A DNA stretch of 32,000 nt from Candidatus Methylomirabilis oxygeniifera (GCA_000091165.1 FP565575.1:1770001-1802000), one strand, 5' to 3'. Positions 19,325 through 26,433 are shown, numbered from the stretch's first letter. The notes: generated by a model not told the origin, from the sequence alone. Translations and numbers: made by a program.

Positions 19325-19564
19325 TTATGGTAGGGGGGTTTCGCAGAGCTGTTTGAGGTCCTCAAAATAACGCCGATGTGTCCGACGTAACGCTTCTTCG
19401 CTGGCTGCTTCCAGCAGGACTACTTCGTGGTCCACTCCTGCGCGATTGAGGTTCAACTCGATCTCAAGCCGTGAGTCCTCAGCATTCCGCCGCTCCGAGT
19501 CCTCGAAGGCTCTAAAGTTGACAATGCGGCCCTCGCCACGGTTGTACTCAATTAAGAATATCAT
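19325..19564 (-). CDS. Small acidic/basic protein coupled to the RelA/SpoT-domain gene; candidate cognate antitoxin or regulator
   Basis: 79-aa ORF whose ATG overlaps the upstream stop (ATGA at 19564-19561). Sequence: MIFLIEYNRGEGRIVNFRAFEDSERRNAE...VVLLEAASEEALRRTHRRYF. The function is inferred from gene context only. Confidence 0.5.
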   Translation of the reverse strand: MIFLIEYNRGEGRIVNFRAFEDSERRNAEDSRLEIELNLNRAGVDHEVVLLEAASEEALRRTHRRYFEDLKQLCETPLP

Positions 19565-20283
19565 TGCTTCTGCCCCTTTAGGTTGACTAATTCAGAGATT
19601 AGCCTGTTAAGACTGCCGGCTATTTCCTTCTTGAGGTCAACAACCCGTTCTCGCAATTCTTGTAGATTCTGCTCACTTCCATGCTGTTCAATGAGACGTG
19701 CAATTCTTAACTCTGACTCTTCTACCCTTGCTATATCTGCACTAAAAGTTGCAAGTAACCGTCGAATTGCGTCGTGACCGCCGCCATATTTTATATCCGG
19801 ATCGAAGACATCCGATAACTTCTCCGAGAGCTCCGCCCAGAGGTGCTGTAATAAAGTCCGGACTTGGATCTCGACCAACTTCCCAGAGGTCTTGGCAATG
19901 ATGTGAACCGCTCTGTAGCCATGGCTGGGATCGGCTCGGCGGTCTATTACGGACGCCCCAGGCCACATGAAAAGTAATGCTACAGCAATACTTTCTTGCT
20001 CCGTAATGTCGGCTACGACTACCCTGCACCCGGCGATATCCTGCACCTGGCTCAGCCGGATGCTTTCGCGACGGAGCTTCTCTATCAGCGAGCCCGTAGA
20101 TTTGGCTGGTCTTCCCGTTGGCTGCAATTTGAGTCCCTCACGTAGAAATCGGACTACAGTTTCGCACGCCTCTTCAAACGACCGTCGATACTCATCGAGG
20201 ATTCTTAGATCGGACTCGGTGAGAGAATCTTCCCTCAAGCGGTCTCCAAGCTGGTCAATCTGCGTATGGCTAAGATTTGTCAT
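19561..20283 (-). CDS. RelA/SpoT-domain nucleotide pyrophosphokinase, small alarmone synthetase-like (toxSAS-like candidate toxin)
   Basis: Synthetase motifs: GRPAKSTGSLIEKLRRE, VQDIAGCRVVV, HGYRAVHII, VEIQVRTLLQHLWAELSEKL. There is no hydrolase (HD) domain and the C-terminal tail is coiled-coil-like. The track start at 20316 is TTG; ATG at 20283 (MTNLSHTQIDQL) is preferred. Confidence 0.8.
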   Translation of the reverse strand: MTNLSHTQIDQLGDRLREDSLTESDLRILDEYRRSFEEACETVVRFLREGLKLQPTGRPAKSTGSLIEKLRRESIRLSQVQDIAGCRVVVADITEQESIAVALLFMWPGASVIDRRADPSHGYRAVHIIAKTSGKLVEIQVRTLLQHLWAELSEKLSDVFDPDIKYGGGHDAIRRLLATFSADIARVEESELRIARLIEQHGSEQNLQELRERVVDLKKEIAGSLNRLISELVNLKGQKQ

Positions 20284-20511
20284 GAATTGATGTAGTCCGA
20301 TGTCCGGTCTGCCCAACTATTAAGCGAGGCCGACCACAATAATGACACGCAAAGAGCAACCCCCGCAATCTATACTGACGCGAGCGGCAATGAACCATCT
20401 TGGGTCGCCCATCTCTTCGGCTAAGTCCTCTTACTCTCAATTAAGACAGGACGTGCGCCTACCGACTGACTAGCCCTGAGAGGTCTTCGACCTGATCCTC
20501 TGCCCGGCGGC

Positions 20512-23500
20512 TTACGCCAAATGCCGGCGAAGGAAATCTCGCGTCTGCGGCCAGGTGAACAGGTTCGTGTGATGGACGCCGCTCATCGAGTGAACGAGAA
20601 CGCCGGGAGGAGTCGGAACCTTCGGGTCGGGGTTGAAGATGAGGATGCGGTGTGCTGGGATGACGGGGCCGACGGTTTCGAGGTTCGGTGTCGCGTCTAC
20701 CGACCAGACATGCGCGGTGTCTACCACAAGATCGTTAGGATCGCCGAAAAATGCGTCAATGGTCGCGTCTCCGGCTTCACTGAGTAATCGTTTGAGATTG
20801 AATTCATCGCGCTCGGGTTCGTAGTTTGCGGCGATGGCAGCATAGCTGACATTCTTGGGAAGTGGAGCCGGACTTTGCAGGCGACGCAGGAAATCGGATG
20901 TGCCTTGAGCCGTCGGGTTTTGCGCGTGCAGGCCAGGAATCGCTTTCACGGCACCTCGGACCAGGAGCTGAACGAAGAGTCCGCTCAGTCGTCCGTAAAA
21001 ACCCGTCGGATCAGCATGCGCAAGATTGATCAGCACATCAGCGGCCCGACCCCAATTGTCGGGATTGGCGAGATCCGTTCCGCTGTTCGGCGTTCCGACA
21101 AACACGAGGCGTCGAACCGCGTCATCGTGATTACCCAGCTCAATCAACGCGCGCGCCACCAGGCCGCCGCGACTATGGGTAATGATGTCGAGTCGATGGC
21201 CTGTCCGTAGGCGTGGATCAAGCCGCTCCCACAGTTCCTTGGCGTTATCTTCCGGAGACTTCGACAGTGTCCAGTGGTTGTAGCCGATCACGCCGCGATA
21301 CTGTTGACGCGCCCAATCGAGAAACTGCTCGCCGAGGCCATTTATCGGGGATTCCGTCTTGCTGAACGTTCCGTGAATAATCAGAAGCACCCGATCAGTC
21401 TGGCCTGGGGCTGGTGCGCCATCGAGCCAACCCCACTGTCCGGATCGTGGCAGCGGGTCATATTGCGGACCGGATGTGATGTGTAGAAGTTGTTCGACGG
21501 CGACCGTCTCCCGATCAAATTGCTCAACCAGACGGAAAATTAATGGCTTGGTTTCATCCCCAGTGATCGTTCCGACGACCCAGCGTCCGATAACGCGCAG
21601 GTAATCCTTGAACCCACGCTCCAGACCGAGCGCGCCTCTGACCGAATCCTTCATGGCGGCCGTTCCGAGTTCGGAACCGGGCAGCGGAAGTCGCTGACCG
21701 GTATTCGGATCGATAATCTGCCATACGCGGATGCCGTTGATTTCCACAAGTTCGAATCCGGGAGTTTTCTCTGGCAAGGACTCAATGCCGCGAGCCACAT
21801 CAACGGAGAGTTGACGAATGCCTGGACCAGCGATGAGACCATCAATCTCCTTGGCTGTGGCCTGGGCCAAGCGTTTCATGCGAATGCGCGAACGGCCCGG
21901 CCGCGACGGCACCGGGGTCGGTTCCGGAGCCATTTCCCGAGCTGCGCGCTCGGCGTGCGGCGTCCACAACGACTCAAGGAGCCGAGGCGTCGGATCGCCA
22001 TAGAGCACGACACTCGCCCAACTGAGCGCACTACGCGCAGGCATCGCAACGCCTGCATTGTTCGCCGCGAGCAGATCGTCTTTTGCCATCGACTTGGCAA
22101 AGCGGAGCGCTTCGCCGAGACTTGCGCGATCGAGCAGCAGCGCACGATAAAAATCGACGGCCAGTTGAGCGGCCGCCTGATCATCTACCGGCCACAGCGG
22201 CGCGATGTAGGCGGCCACGGCCTGGTTGATGAACGCGGTGGCCAGGCCGAACACGTCACTGTGATATCGCATGGCGGAAGCCCCCGCATCCATCCCCGCT
22301 TCGCACGCATTGGCGAAGACGAGCCACGGCGGTGAATCCGTCCACGCCAGCGTGTTCCGGATTTCGCGCGCGCGGAGCATGGCGTCGCTGAGCAGCCACG
22401 CGCTGGATTCGGCATCCTTCTTGTCAAAGTACGCATGACCGGCATAGTGGATGATATCGAACCGGCCGCTGCGGAGATGTTGACGAACATCATTCACGGT
22501 GACGCGGACCCCGACGAGGGGGGTCACTCTGATCGGCACCATGCCCAAGAGTTCGTCACCGAGGCGATCGAATTCATTGATCACCATGCGCGCCTCGCGT
22601 TGAGCCCCGGGCAATTGCCGAGGTCGCCAGCCATGGGTCTTTTCGCACTGGCGCGCAAACTCGGGAGAGAATTGGGGATCACCGATGACCAACACCTCAA
22701 TTGGCCCGGGTTTCCGCTGCATCACGCGACGCGCATGGCCGGCCTCCATGAATACCTGGCGGCCAAGCGCGTAGCGATCACTGAGCATCCCCTGCCGGTC
22801 GCTGATGAGTTCCCATGGATAGCGCATGAACTCAGCAGGAATTTGCAATCGCAAATGGGGCGTTCGGTCAGGTTGCCGCCGTGTCGCTTCACTGCGCTCG
22901 TCCAGCAATCGATCGGCCAGATCCTGCAAGATATCCTCGCCGAGGCTGCGGCCGAATGACTCCAACTTTTGGCGAGCGGTTTCCGTCTCCTCCGAGCTTT
23001 GAAGGAGTTGCTGCAGCGCGCCAAGCGTCGCGTCGATGGCCGGTTGAAACACCCGGCTTTTATGCTCCGCGACAATCGCGCCGGCCACCGCCGATTCCAA
23101 TCGCAACCGATAGTGCTGCCGGCCGCCCTCAGCATCTTGTGTAATCACAGAATCAAGGGAAAGCGTCAACGCCGTCTTGTCATCGAGCGACTGAAACTGC
23201 CCTTTTAGGCCTTCAATGACTGAATCCGGGCTGATCAACCGGCGAAGCAATTCATCGCGGGCCGAACCGTTGGCATCCGACAGCATCGAACTGACAAGCC
23301 GCCACAGCACGTGCGGTTTTTCGCTGATGAGCTGGAATGCGCCGAGCAGCGCCGCCCAATGAACGCGCTTGGCGAATCGCAAGTCGAGATAATTTGAATC
23401 AGCCAACTGAAATGAATGCTCGCCCGATTTATTCGATCCCATCGGATCACGCGTCGGTGGCAGCAGTATGGACAAACCGCGATCTTTTGGTCGCGTATGC

Positions 23501-24651
23501 AGCAACAGCGCATTGCCCGACCGGGTTGAGGCCGTGAACACATCGAGCGCTTTGCCGACCAAGTCGCCGAGTTGCACAATCCGCGCTCGTTGACCGAATG
23601 TCGACTTCGTCTCTTTGCCTTCGATGACCAGCTCCCGTTGAAGATTCTTTAGCAATGCGAACAGATCGACGGCCGGCAGATGCGTCCATGCCTCCGGCTG
23701 CTTGGCGGATTGCTGTGAAGTCGGGGACTTATCGAGTCCATCGGTCGTGATCCAATCCGTTTTCCGGCCCGCTCGACTCACGGCATTGAACACATGCCAA
23801 TCGCCCAGGTGTTGCATGAGCGCCAGCGCCATTGTGTCGAGCACGCGCCCGGCATCATCGAGCGCGTCGAGATTGACTGCGGCCATCGACACATCTTTCC
23901 CGGGATACGCATCGGCCACAGTATCGACAATGATTCGACCAAGCGCGTGTGCGTCAGCATTGGGTTTGGCGGCTCGCGTCTGCCACTTGGAGAGGATGCG
24001 TTGGTACGGCCAACCGTCGTCTGGCAACAATCGCTGCGATGCGACAAGCACATGGGCCAATCTCTCCATCTGGTACGCGATTTCAACGAACGCCGCTGCG
24101 CCCATATCCAACCCAACGAGGTCGACCGGCGCGTGTCGCTTATCTGCAATCTGCTCAAGAATGGCGCGAAGCTCGTGGGCTTCGAGCGCATCTTGAGCGG
24201 TGCGGTCGTGACAAATAGTGAAAAGCTTTTGCAGCACGCGAGCGTCGATTTCTTCGGCTCCGGAACGACCCGCATCAACCGCCAAATGCTCGCGAACATA
24301 CTCAGGAGAGATTCCCAGTCCTGAGAGGATGATCGCCACATGATCGGAAGGCGCGTGCTCGATGCCCCACAGGAAAAAATCAATCGCCGTCTTCGGATCC
24401 CCCGTGTTGACGCGGCCACAATCCACCGAAGAGAGCGGCGAGGATGCGCCTTTGCTCGACTTGGGCGGCAACACATACCGCCGGGCGCCGGCCGCCGTGT
24501 CCACCTGAGCGACAACGTAACACCTGTCGACGCTTCCAACGCGACGAATCTCCTCGAAGTCTTTCTTGATATCGGCTTCCAGATGATTGTCGCCGCACAT
24601 ATACAGGAGGAACGTCCACGGCCTTGTAGCCGGGTGTTTGTGTCGAGTCAT
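20512..24651 (-). CDS. 1379-aa multidomain protein: degenerate clostripain (C11)-like domain, helical region, CHAT protease domain, Pro/Arg-rich linker, and lipase-like alpha/beta-hydrolase domain
   Basis: GGAGG lies 6 nt upstream of the ATG at 24651.
- aa 11-295 are C11-like (WTFLLYMCGDNHLE, VDLVGLDMGAAAFVEIAYQ, DDGWPY) but lack the catalytic His and Cys.
- aa 596-886 are CHAT (LRLQIPAEFMRYPWELI, IIHYAGHAYF with His739, LVFANACEAG with Cys782).
- aa 1085-1379 are an alpha/beta-hydrolase (LLIIHGTFS, nucleophile elbow ITHSRGG with Ser1160, GDPNDLVVD, SGVHHTN).
- I saw no signal peptide or TM segment. Confidence 0.9.
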   Translation of the reverse strand: MTRHKHPATRPWTFLLYMCGDNHLEADIKKDFEEIRRVGSVDRCYVVAQVDTAAGARRYVLPPKSSKGASSPLSSVDCGRVNTGDPKTAIDFFLWGIEHAPSDHVAIILSGLGISPEYVREHLAVDAGRSGAEEIDARVLQKLFTICHDRTAQDALEAHELRAILEQIADKRHAPVDLVGLDMGAAAFVEIAYQMERLAHVLVASQRLLPDDGWPYQRILSKWQTRAAKPNADAHALGRIIVDTVADAYPGKDVSMAAVNLDALDDAGRVLDTMALALMQHLGDWHVFNAVSRAGRKTDWITTDGLDKSPTSQQSAKQPEAWTHLPAVDLFALLKNLQRELVIEGKETKSTFGQRARIVQLGDLVGKALDVFTASTRSGNALLLHTRPKDRGLSILLPPTRDPMGSNKSGEHSFQLADSNYLDLRFAKRVHWAALLGAFQLISEKPHVLWRLVSSMLSDANGSARDELLRRLISPDSVIEGLKGQFQSLDDKTALTLSLDSVITQDAEGGRQHYRLRLESAVAGAIVAEHKSRVFQPAIDATLGALQQLLQSSEETETARQKLESFGRSLGEDILQDLADRLLDERSEATRRQPDRTPHLRLQIPAEFMRYPWELISDRQGMLSDRYALGRQVFMEAGHARRVMQRKPGPIEVLVIGDPQFSPEFARQCEKTHGWRPRQLPGAQREARMVINEFDRLGDELLGMVPIRVTPLVGVRVTVNDVRQHLRSGRFDIIHYAGHAYFDKKDAESSAWLLSDAMLRAREIRNTLAWTDSPPWLVFANACEAGMDAGASAMRYHSDVFGLATAFINQAVAAYIAPLWPVDDQAAAQLAVDFYRALLLDRASLGEALRFAKSMAKDDLLAANNAGVAMPARSALSWASVVLYGDPTPRLLESLWTPHAERAAREMAPEPTPVPSRPGRSRIRMKRLAQATAKEIDGLIAGPGIRQLSVDVARGIESLPEKTPGFELVEINGIRVWQIIDPNTGQRLPLPGSELGTAAMKDSVRGALGLERGFKDYLRVIGRWVVGTITGDETKPLIFRLVEQFDRETVAVEQLLHITSGPQYDPLPRSGQWGWLDGAPAPGQTDRVLLIIHGTFSKTESPINGLGEQFLDWARQQYRGVIGYNHWTLSKSPEDNAKELWERLDPRLRTGHRLDIITHSRGGLVARALIELGNHDDAVRRLVFVGTPNSGTDLANPDNWGRAADVLINLAHADPTGFYGRLSGLFVQLLVRGAVKAIPGLHAQNPTAQGTSDFLRRLQSPAPLPKNVSYAAIAANYEPERDEFNLKRLLSEAGDATIDAFFGDPNDLVVDTAHVWSVDATPNLETVGPVIPAHRILIFNPDPKVPTPPGVLVHSMSGVHHTNLFTWPQTRDFLRRHLA

Positions 24652-24743
24652 CGGGAACCTCCCCGTTCACCGCCGTGCACGCCATGGCGATCGAAAGGTA
24701 AAAAGGCCACTGATCCTCTCCGCGGGCTCTGCGGTGAAATCTG

Positions 24744-25586
24744 TTACACGGGTGAGAGGAACAATCGATCAAAGCTCACCGCCCGACCTTCGAGCTGCGG
24801 CACTTGATCGAACTTGCCTTTCTTGAGCAATTCAATCGTCCGTGCATGTAGTTCGCGATACGTCAATTGACCTTTCTTCTCCTTGATCGCTTCAACCAGG
24901 TTGTACGTCAGCGCCCCGTTGTACTTCCCGCCGATGTAGGCATCAGCGGACGTTTGCGTGTCGCGACAACCCGTGATGAGCAGTTCCGGGATATTGACGT
25001 TCACCACGTCTTTGCCTTTCTTGATCCCCTTTCTCAGCAGCGCCCGCTGACCCCTCACCGCGCCTCTGAGTCGCCGCCCCGATTCGGCCGCAAGAAGATC
25101 CAATGGAGATGGCAGGAACCGCTCGATTCGCTTGGCATCGGGCGGACGCAACTCACGCGTGTTCGACCCTGAATGGCAGCAATCCATGATGACCGTCAGA
25201 TTCACCTTCGGCGGCAGTGTATCGAATTGAGTTCGCAGCCAATCGTCGAGCAAAGGATCTTTCCAGTCAAGATCGGTCGGGCAAAGAATCTCATCCCGAT
25301 GATCCGCCTCGTCACCGCTCTTGTCCGGCACATTCGAACCGTGCCCGGAATAGTGCACCAGCAGCACATCGCCGGGTTTGGCCTTTGCGATCAGCCTTTC
25401 GATTTCGGTCTGCATGCGTTTTTGTGTCGCATCGTAATCAGCAACAACCTTGATATTGCCCTGACTGAAGCCGTAATACTTCATCAGCGCAGCACTGAGG
25501 TTTTTCACGTCATTCACGCAGCCGCGCAGGTCTGCGCCAGGAACTTTGTACTTGTTGATCCCTACAAGCAATGCCTTTTTTGCCAT
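24744..25586 (-). CDS. Peptidase C14 caspase-family protein (bacterial orthocaspase/metacaspase-like), catalytic dyad intact
   Basis: 280-aa ORF with AGGAGG 8 nt upstream of the ATG. Read: KALLVGINKY, His in LLVHYSGHGS (His82), Cys in VIMDCCHSGS (Cys137). It lies 92 nt upstream of the 1379-aa gene on the same strand, with no convincing terminator between them. Confidence 0.9.
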   Translation of the reverse strand: MAKKALLVGINKYKVPGADLRGCVNDVKNLSAALMKYYGFSQGNIKVVADYDATQKRMQTEIERLIAKAKPGDVLLVHYSGHGSNVPDKSGDEADHRDEILCPTDLDWKDPLLDDWLRTQFDTLPPKVNLTVIMDCCHSGSNTRELRPPDAKRIERFLPSPLDLLAAESGRRLRGAVRGQRALLRKGIKKGKDVVNVNIPELLITGCRDTQTSADAYIGGKYNGALTYNLVEAIKEKKGQLTYRELHARTIELLKKGKFDQVPQLEGRAVSFDRLFLSPV

Positions 25587-26022
25587 TCCAGTGTCCTCCT
25601 TTCAATGGTAGCGGTAAACTCCATCTGCACAACAGCCGTCAAGTTGACTACTCGGAATCACGATCAATTCGTTACCCCTGGAGTCGCGTCAAGGGGCGAC
25701 TCGGCATCCGATACTCTCCCCCAAGACCAGCACACCGCATTTTTTCAAAGAATTTCTCAAAAGGCGAGAGATTTCTCACGCCTCACCGAAAGAGGAAAAC
25801 GGGGAGGCAGTTTCGATGACTGCAAATGCCGACTGCCTATCATCTGAGACCATCCGGCTGCTGAGAGCTGAGTTAGCGGCAATATCCGACACAAAGCTGA
25901 AGGTGCCAAATATTTTTCAGGATACCAATCTGCCGCGTAAATCGGTACACTCGCAGTTACTCGATCATCTTACGCAAGGCGATGGTACGCTGAGCCGACG
26001 GGTCAAGCGAGGAAGGATGAAC

Positions 26023-26433
26023 ATGCAGGACGAGCTACTCAAGACTGATGAGCAATGGAAGGCGCGGCTGACGCCTGAGCAGTTTTACGTCTGTCGGCAA
26101 CAAGGGACTGAAAGACCGTTTTCAGGTGAATACTACGCGTGTCAAGATAATGGAATCTACCAGTGCGTCTGCTGCGGTAATGCGTTGTTCAGTTCGGAGA
26201 CCAAGTTCGACTCGGGGACCGGATGGCCCAGCTTTTGGGCTCCTCTTGCGCCGGATCAGATCACAACCGCGGAGGATACCACGCTGTCAATGCGACGCAT
26301 TGAGGTGCGCTGTAGCCGGTGTGGGGCGCACCTAGGTCACGTCTTTCACGACGGCCCACCGCCGCGCGACACACCTTCGCTACTGCATCAATTCTGTCGC
26401 CTTGAGGCTGGTGAAGGGGTAGGATCGCGCTAA
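26023..26433 (+). CDS. msrB: Peptide-methionine (R)-S-oxide reductase MsrB, apparently frameshifted near the 3' end
   Basis: TPEQFYVCRQQGTERPFSGEY, Zn-binding CVCCG and CSRCGAHLGHVFHDGPPP. The conserved LRYCINS motif is encoded in the +1 frame from about 26375 and ends at TAG 26420-26422. GGAAGG precedes the ATGs at 26017 and 26023. The 67-aa extension from 25816 looks non-coding. Confidence 0.75.
   Translation: MQDELLKTDEQWKARLTPEQFYVCRQQGTERPFSGEYYACQDNGIYQCVCCGNALFSSETKFDSGTGWPSFWAPLAPDQITTAEDTTLSMRRIEVRCSRCGAHLGHVFHDGPPPRDTPSLLHQFCRLEAGEGVGSR

Follow-up and report, generated by a model that had tools for sequence, protein, structure and literature searches.

A metacaspase-like gene and a pseudo-C11–CHAT–hydrolase gene as a candidate NTPase-free proteolytic module in Candidatus Methylomirabilis

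The roles and substrates of bacterial orthocaspases and metacaspases are largely open. A 32,000-nucleotide (nt) stretch of DNA from Candidatus Methylomirabilis oxygeniifera (FP565575.1:1770001-1802000; referred to as the window) poses this question in condensed form: on its minus strand, a C14 metacaspase-like (orthocaspase) gene is followed by a gene for a protein of 1379 amino acids (aa) that strings together a clostripain-like (C11) domain, a CHAT protease domain and a lipase-like α/β-hydrolase. An earlier, sequence-only reading had taken the pair for an undescribed proteolytic cell-death or defense system. What is this pair likely to do, and how new is it?

Our analysis favors, at a probability of roughly 0.55, a self-contained proteolytic module that is free of a nucleoside triphosphatase (NTPase) and belongs to the caspase-superfamily peptidase plus α/β-hydrolase type predicted for bacterial conflict or regulated cell death, with a sensor–protease–pro-effector chain and a caspase partner. 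Pfam, AlphaFold and Foldseek backed all four domain assignments (C14, C11, CHAT and hydrolase), and across genomes the linkage of the C14 gene to the large gene is non-random.

Domain make-up of the two proteins

Both proteins match entries of Candidatus Methylomirabilis oxyfera (NC10) at 100% identity, the large one CBE69122.1/D5MH90, the small one CBE69123.1/D5MH91. The coordinates of the open reading frames (ORFs), their strand, the 92-nt gap and the lack of a convincing terminator, as first described, all held up (Table 1). The large-gene ATG is preceded by a GGAGG Shine-Dalgarno sequence at 7 nt, and a scan of the spacer for a terminator-like site or hairpin found none; the two genes therefore probably share one transcript. 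Scanning both proteins revealed no hydrophobic stretch at the transmembrane threshold and no signal-peptide-like N-terminus, which fits the cytoplasmic location proposed for the large protein, and Pfam found neither a secretion-associated nor an NTPase domain in either of them. With no signal peptide, transmembrane segment, secretion-associated Pfam domain or conserved immunity-like neighbor, a secreted lipase or protease and a polymorphic toxin were ruled out.

The small protein matches Pfam Peptidase_C14 (PF00656; 3e-35, 122 bits, cutoff 21.4) and the PADLOC 'caspase' model (6e-21), and its closest solved relatives in a PDB sequence search are the metacaspases AtMC4, Yca1 and TbMCA2 (4e-36 to 1e-27). 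The intact His82/Cys137 orthocaspase dyad noticed earlier is thus borne out by motifs, Pfam and metacaspase matches alike, and the SGHG and DCCHSG motifs are preserved in 23 of 23 partner C14 genes, even at ~30% identity. A basic linker between p20 and p10 lies around residues 170-195. The metacaspase-type motifs suggest cleavage after Arg or Lys.

The large protein begins with a domain that matches Pfam Peptidase_C11 at residues 17-282 (PF03415; 5e-19, 69 bits, cutoff 25.8). Of the two AlphaFold models built on family alignments, the one covering residues 1-900 reached a mean predicted local distance difference test score (pLDDT) of 80.7 and a predicted template modeling score (pTM) of 0.72, the other, covering residues 890-1379, a pLDDT of 84 and a pTM of 0.86. 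In Foldseek comparison with the PDB, the N-terminus retrieved clostripain 9cip (E 2e-16, target-normalised template modeling (TM) score 0.57) and the C11 entries 6mzo and 6n9j. In place of the canonical C11 motifs W(N/D)HG and FDACLM, the protein has SGLGI and LDMGAA, with L112 at the position of the catalytic His and G184 at that of the catalytic Cys, as expected from the loss of both catalytic residues postulated earlier. The His is missing in every aligned CHAT-linked relative readable at that position, the Cys in most. The motif comparison thus identifies the domain as a conserved pseudo-peptidase of C11 fold rather than an active C11 enzyme. D182, by contrast with the lost dyad, is invariant in family alignments A1 and A3; it aligns to the Asp two residues ahead of the catalytic Cys in C11, which we take to be the S1 arginine-binding residue of clostripain and PmC11. 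Since this Asp is kept and the dyad lost, the pseudo-C11 domain may act as an Arg-peptide receptor, with either a foreign protein or the basic linker of the same chain as ligand.

The region that follows had been described as helical (residues 300-595). It is present, although not purely helical: the model shows a mixed α/β composition, one part forms the C-terminal portion of the C11 fold, and residues ~411-600 accompany CHAT, matching CHAT proteins without C11. This last portion behaves as if it extended the CHAT module at its N-terminus.

Residues 574-886 match Pfam CHAT (PF12770; 6e-34, 118 bits, cutoff 24), and the central part of the model retrieved Csx29 TPR-CHAT, separase, DdvA and SAVED-CHAT by Foldseek (entries include 8eey, 7zoq and 8tl0). 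The CHAT dyad is intact, as the sequence-only reading had it, and His739 was correctly placed; the cysteine is residue 783, not 782. Both H739 and C783 are invariant in alignments of 22 and 37 family members.

Between CHAT and hydrolase lies the basic, proline-rich linker that had been noted before, to which the model adds disorder (pLDDT <50 at residues 890-904 and 915-927). Its basic cluster, R917-R927 (RPGRSRIRMKR), recurs just ahead of a 'QA...GPG' motif in most family members equipped with a C-terminal hydrolase module, whether a C14 gene adjoins or not. The linker is a candidate cleavage or docking site. The small α/β subdomain that follows occupies the position of a Pfam DUF7362 match in 5 of 47 aligned DUF7379 proteins. 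The hydrolase itself matches Pfam DUF7379 at residues 1089-1249 (PF24096; 4e-39, 135 bits, cutoff 33), and additional weak matches to Palm_thioest and PGAP1 mark the region as α/β-hydrolase. The Ser-Asp-His arrangement proposed for it is complete (S1160/D1307/H1361) and is accompanied by an oxyanion pair, H1093-G1094; S1160, D1307, H1093 and G1094 are kept in 47/47 homologs, H1361 in 46/47. The best Foldseek matches of the C-terminus are bacterial lipases (AMS3, L1/T1, BlEst2, Proteus, Burkholderia) and the Legionella phospholipase PlaB (E ~1e-7 to 1e-5), and by analogy the enzyme would act on lipid or acyl-ester substrates.

Family spread and linkage of the C14 gene

The architecture is rare and patchy in distribution. 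It accounts for ~42 clusters at 90% identity in 5.8 billion proteins; residues 1-600 retrieve 74 representatives (50% identity) with E <1e-30, and the family occurs, with unrelated flanks, in ~50 of 185,579 species-representative genomes. Its phyla are Planctomycetota, Verrucomicrobiota, Chloroflexota, Acidobacteriota, NC10 and Myxococcota/'Deltaproteobacteria'.

Tallies of the C14 neighbor rest on tblastn and hidden Markov model searches of stop-to-stop ORFs. Of the family loci, 38 have at least 1.2 kb of upstream sequence and count as informative; C14 adjoins the large gene in 18 of them, from six phyla: in 17 it lies directly upstream on the same strand, in one (L034) directly downstream, as it also does in L050, a locus without upstream sequence. 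C14 was found nowhere else within the ±10 kb flanks of family loci, and further Pfam-annotated family contexts hold it in 3 of 5. Neighbor clustering over 56 loci gave C14 as the only conserved partner and no recurring defense or mobile gene.

The association also holds in reverse. A scan of metagenome contigs with the aligned close C14 clade gave 62 informative loci, and in 30 of them a relative of CHAT or DUF7379 lies on the same strand downstream of C14. Where at least 4 kb of downstream sequence is available, a same-strand CHAT/hydrolase giant follows the close C14 homolog in 21 of 31 loci. These giants represent five architectures: the pseudo-C11–CHAT–hydrolase family itself, DUF7379–LCAT/DUF676–CHAT–TPR-S (~1,880 aa), DUF7379–CHAT–TPR-S (1,463 aa), an LCAT-like hydrolase–M17_N–CHAT form (~1,060 aa), and a form with an unassigned N-terminal region followed by CHAT–TPR-S (~1,000 aa). 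Taken together, the forward and reverse counts indicate that the C14–CHAT(–hydrolase) coupling is robust, wider than the pseudo-C11 family, and facultative. Synteny of a C14 gene with the CHAT-hydrolase gene, on which the sequence-only reading depended, is therefore genuine, albeit confined to about half of the family loci.

Could the two genes be mere neighbors with independent functions and no cascade between them? The many family loci without C14 within 10 kb, about half of the total, and the 10 of 31 close C14 homologs that lack a downstream CHAT gene are what such a reading would predict. It is nonetheless close to refuted, given that same-strand adjacency, with gaps of 5-650 nt, recurs in six phyla and five architectures, outlasts both the divergence of C14 to ~30% identity and a swap of the hydrolase family, and is not accompanied by C14 genes elsewhere in the flanks.

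Several loci add detail to this picture. Seven (L122, L123, L130, L132, L143, L163 and L169; e.g. L130 6001-12550) carry a close C14 homolog followed after ~65-90 nt by the ~1,880-aa giant, in which a DUF7379 and an LCAT/DUF676-like hydrolase, i.e. two hydrolase domains, precede CHAT and a TPR sensor (TPR-S). Three Vicinamibacterales loci (L046 8182-9956, L055 8170-9965 and L056 8268-9968) have two head-to-head C14 paralogs upstream of a hydrolase-less pseudo-C11–CHAT gene, one ~62% and the other ~33% identical to the C14 of the window. In the Pirellulaceae-type loci L034 (14758-16740) and L050 (2075-4111), the downstream C14 is 660-678 aa long, with a ~350-aa C-terminal extension without a Pfam match.

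Heads and effectors vary within and around the family. At the C-terminus, DUF900 replaces DUF7379 in L048 and L171, where C14, pseudo-C11 and CHAT are retained; Vicinamibacterales members have no hydrolase, and in L088 it is fragmented while C14 and pseudo-C11–CHAT remain. At the N-terminus, sister architectures have TPR-S, TCAD7 or WD40 where the pseudo-C11 head stands here, and a 2,032-aa family member (L028 4276-10374) carries an extra WD40-like β-propeller ahead of pseudo-C11. One locus (L084) is split into a 927-aa C11-family gene, which is a family member and whose product resembles the N-terminus of P0068 from residue 897 on, and a following DUF7379 gene.

CHAT and DUF7379 also associate beyond this family. 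They are fused in both orders, i.e. as in the pseudo-C11 family and as DUF7362–DUF7379–DUF7363–CHAT in P0043, and in L087 a TCAD7-CHAT gene adjoins a DUF7379 gene beside a PhdYeFM antitoxin. The last ~450 residues of the large protein likewise exist as free-standing ~500-aa proteins (DUF7362 plus DUF7379) in many bacteria; among five free-standing DUF7379 genes examined, two had no CHAT neighbor. In Pseudomonas laurentiana (L083 360-9491; OZ350628.1), a four-gene operon reads CHAT-SIR2_2, nSTAND1 NTPase, TCAD7-CHAT and DUF7379, near Abi_alpha, which places the DUF7379 hydrolase family in an NTPase-centered conflict system.

The swapping of effectors bears on whether the hydrolase is an effector at all. 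It might instead be a regulatory or processing partner that, for instance, enables CHAT or C14 to act by stripping a substrate or signal of an acyl or ester modification; the true effectors would then be the proteases. We consider this improbable. Secreted bacterial lipases and the phospholipase PlaB head the structural matches, and a disordered, potentially cleavable linker ahead of the hydrolase suits a pro-effector; the weak Pfam matches, on the other hand, point to deacylases and thioesterases (PGAP1, Palm_thioest) and not to true lipase families, and the Vicinamibacterales loci and L088 do keep C14 and pseudo-C11–CHAT where the hydrolase is absent or fragmented. Kaur et al. (2020, eLife, PMC7159879) report that caspase-superfamily domains of VMAP-type systems are in every case accompanied by an α/β-hydrolase encoded next door, and say of the two just that they 'operate together'; a 2021 follow-up from the same group reads such α/β-hydrolases as membrane-lipid hydrolysing effectors (PMC8195603).

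Proposed mechanism and genomic setting

By analogy with known systems, a protease-licensed hydrolase is a reasonable mechanism for the pair. The pseudo-C11 domain and the middle region would form a regulatory or sensor head that controls CHAT, and the lipase-like serine hydrolase would be held as a pro-effector behind the disordered basic linker. A trigger would lift the inhibition of CHAT; a cut at the linker, by CHAT or by the putatively Arg/Lys-specific C14, would then free or activate the hydrolase. CHAT and C14 would act on each other in a two-step cascade, comparable to SAVED-CHAT, which cleaves and activates PCaspase (Steens et al., 10.1101/2023.06.23.546230). Damage to the cell would then come from two sides, the C14 protease and the hydrolase with its lipid or acyl-ester substrates, and end in growth arrest or cell death.

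A number of observations weigh against this proposal. Loci without C14 also keep the basic linker motif, so C14, absent next to about half of the family loci, is not an obligatory linker protease. As the linker is conserved without a C14 neighbor, CHAT is the more likely linker protease and C14 the more likely downstream amplifier, as in the SAVED-CHAT system; this division of labor is a guess by analogy. The hydrolase resembles lipases only distantly (~15% identity, TM 0.3-0.6), so its substrate could be a non-lipid ester or thioester. No PADLOC or NCBIfam model covers the large protein, and a PDB sequence search with it gave no match. The remaining contrary points come from the genomic setting.

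The sequence-only reading had placed the pair in an accessory or defense block together with a toxSAS-like pair, a placement that the neighborhood does not support. On the low-coordinate side of the pair lie genes for a rhomboid protein, PCMT, sigma-70, SAM hydroxide adenosyltransferase, a 4HBT thioesterase and tRNA-Leu, on the high-coordinate side those for MsrB, two small ORFs, UppS, an M50 protease and TonB; small neighboring ORFs (112-135 aa) gave no Pfam match. The content of guanine and cytosine (GC) in the pair resembles that of the flanks. In a second, ~90% identical genome (L001), the window aligns continuously save for positions 19400-20436, a 1,037-bp indel; the caspase pair sits at the same chromosomal site there, with flank-like divergence, and in these two Methylomirabilis genomes looks stably inherited rather than like a fast-turnover defense gene. 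The contig in question, DATMXF010000163.1, is labelled 'Patescibacteria group bacterium' and is 89-92% identical to the window over ~21 kb; it is probably mis-binned or mis-classified.

The toxSAS-like RelA_SpoT gene was rejected as a part of the module. Its 1,037-bp segment is missing in L001, where the pair is present, which makes it an independent insertion, and it was found in 0 of 80 related genome loci (L001-L080). With a 79-aa ORF that overlaps it, it is arranged like a toxin-antitoxin pair; this small ORF extends beyond the indel boundary into sequence shared with L001. As a separate observation, the MsrB (SelR) ORF (25816-26433, plus strand) has, as listed, an ~84-residue N-terminal extension before its domain. 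Translation probably begins at an internal Met near 26020, giving a ~430-bp divergent promoter region common to the C14 gene.

Defense islands were judged by qualitative inspection of six Pfam-annotated family neighborhoods, which hold housekeeping genes instead. Among 2.9 million viral contigs, a single weak CHAT-only match and no family member were found, and a phage-borne origin was ruled out on this basis. A defense or mobile context of the family is thus not supported.

These findings are also the case for a physiological role, i.e. stress- or development-linked regulated proteolysis with lipid or acyl-protein remodelling in bacteria of complex lifestyle (Planctomycetota, Verrucomicrobiota, Acidobacteriota, Chloroflexota, Myxococcota, NC10), without a link to phages or mobile elements. 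Housekeeping neighbors in every annotated context, position and divergence that match the flanks in both Methylomirabilis genomes, flank-like GC content, absence from viral contigs and the lack of a recurring defense or mobile gene at 56 loci all agree with it. We nevertheless think it rather unlikely, since the patchy occurrence in six phyla with unrelated flanks, the swapping of sensor and effector domains among relatives, and the DUF7379 relatives in nSTAND1/TCAD operons beside Abi_alpha or next to a PhdYeFM antitoxin are typical traits of conflict systems. The patchy spread and the domain swapping, in other words, still fit a conflict-type module.

A farther-reaching version of the conflict-module reading can be put forward tentatively, as a possibility with the odds somewhat against it: the conserved C14 clade would be the dedicated partner of widespread CHAT plus α/β-hydrolase giants with swappable heads (pseudo-C11, TPR-S, WD40), together constituting an NTPase-free 'dual-caspase' system for cell death or immunity. 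Its arginine-peptide receptor would be the dead clostripain domain with its retained S1 aspartate, and proteolysis would set free a lipolytic effector. Were this so, bacterial orthocaspases would gain a defined pathway and defined substrates.

Table 1 Positions of the gene pair, its domains and residues, and the adjoining RelA_SpoT locus, counted from the first letter of the window
Feature	Position	Strand	Remarks
C14 metacaspase-like (orthocaspase) gene	24744..25586	minus	280 aa
C14 catalytic H82	25341-25343	minus	SGHG motif
C14 catalytic C137	25176-25178	minus	DCCHSG motif
Intergenic spacer	24652..24743	minus	92 nt; GGAGG ribosome-binding site before large gene
Large gene (CBE69122.1 / D5MH90)	20512..24651	minus	1379 aa + stop
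Pseudo-C11 (clostripain-fold) domain, residues ~10-300	23752..24624	minus	Pfam, Foldseek, motif comparison
Middle region, residues 301-573	22933..23751	minus	mixed helices, three-stranded sheet at 494-535 (AlphaFold model)
CHAT protease domain, residues 574-886	21994..22932	minus	Pfam PF12770, Foldseek, invariant dyad
CHAT H739	22435-22437	minus	
CHAT C783	22303-22305	minus	
Disordered Pro-rich/basic linker, residues 897-944	21820..21963	minus	AlphaFold pLDDT
Small α/β subdomain ahead of hydrolase, residues 945-1066	21454..21819	minus	
DUF7379 lipase-like α/β-hydrolase, residues 1085-1379	20515..21399	minus	Pfam PF24096
Hydrolase nucleophile S1160	21172-21174	minus	HSRGG motif
Hydrolase D1307	20731-20733	minus	
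Hydrolase H1361	20569-20571	minus	
RelA_SpoT gene (toxSAS-like)	19561-20316	minus	251 aa; Pfam 3e-14; PADLOC candidate system PDC-S33, 5e-30
Small ORF	19325-19564	minus	79 aa; no Pfam match; overlaps RelA_SpoT stop codon by 4 nt

Relation to known systems

Neither the pseudo-C11–CHAT–DUF7379 architecture nor its C14 partner is described in the literature searched, in which nothing relevant turned up on DUF7379, on TPR-S combined with caspase, or on caspases in Methylomirabilis. Separase has a pseudo-protease domain beside an active one. The CHAT half has both separase and Csx29 (the TPR-CHAT protease of Craspase) among its top structural matches; here, in contrast, the pseudo-domain is of C11 lineage and lies ~300 residues upstream, and a gRAMP partner is missing. 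Bacterial gasdermin systems and Borvo (BovA) share caspase-like or CHAT proteases, there employed in anti-phage cell death. No gasdermin gene adjoins the pair, however, whose flanks are MsrB and the RelA_SpoT gene, and the BovA model matches the CHAT core only (1e-4, 19 bits; residues 720-828, profile 536-639 of 711). Membership in the gasdermin, Craspase, Borvo and SAVED-CHAT systems was ruled out, a defining component being missing in each case.

SAVED-CHAT/PCaspase, from the type III-B CRISPR-CBASS hybrid of Haliangium ochraceum, is similar in that a CHAT gene stands beside a second caspase-family protease gene. It differs in that the large protein has no SAVED domain by Pfam, that the window genes scanned are housekeeping genes with no cyclase or CRISPR genes among them, and that hydrolase and pseudo-C11 are additional here. 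A cyclic oligoadenylate sensed through SAVED is excluded as the trigger. No solved PCaspase chain was among the PDB sequence matches of the C14 protein, and homology to PCaspase is assessed at the family level only. The Trypsin-MBL module, in which a trypsin-like protease activates its partner metallo-β-lactamase-fold (MBL) nuclease by cleavage (2025 preprint, 10.1101/2025.09.03.673762), offers the same logic of a protease, a latent hydrolytic effector activated by cleavage and interchangeable sensors, a logic that in our case is proposed from the genes; the folds are different, namely caspase instead of trypsin and α/β-hydrolase instead of MBL nuclease.

The closest precedents are the vWA-MoxR-VMAP, iSTAND and GAP1 'ternary' systems (PMC7159879), where an active caspase-fold (CHAT-type) peptidase is likewise, and obligatorily, coupled to an α/β-hydrolase. 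Dead caspase-fold domains occur there too, and many effector-position caspase domains are inactive and proposed to be peptide-binding regulators (PMC7159879); the DUF7379 gene beside TCAD7-CHAT in the nSTAND1 operon of L083 is a further point of contact. Unlike these systems, the pair has no MoxR, vWA, STAND or GTPase component, and Pfam detects no EAD adaptor in the two proteins; protease and hydrolase reside in one chain, which begins with a pseudo-C11 domain, and a separate C14 metacaspase-like gene is the sole conserved partner. Within the literature searched, the claim of an undescribed system therefore stands for this architecture, with its pseudo-C11 N-terminus, missing NTPase and C14 partner, and is too strong otherwise, as the pairing of caspase with α/β-hydrolase has been described computationally (PMC7159879) and a CHAT-to-caspase cascade demonstrated (10.1101/2023.06.23.546230).

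The pair is thus best filed as an NTPase-free form of the known caspase plus α/β-hydrolase effector theme, with a conserved orthocaspase partner, which extends to a stand-alone form a pairing so far predicted only within NTPase-centered systems. Through the locus and the reciprocal synteny, a single orthocaspase clade becomes connected with CHAT proteases and lipase-like hydrolases, in no fewer than five domain architectures. The pair is a small, genetically tractable two-gene system for probing a putative caspase-type cascade, possible sensing by a pseudo-protease domain and a proposed protease-activated hydrolase pro-effector.

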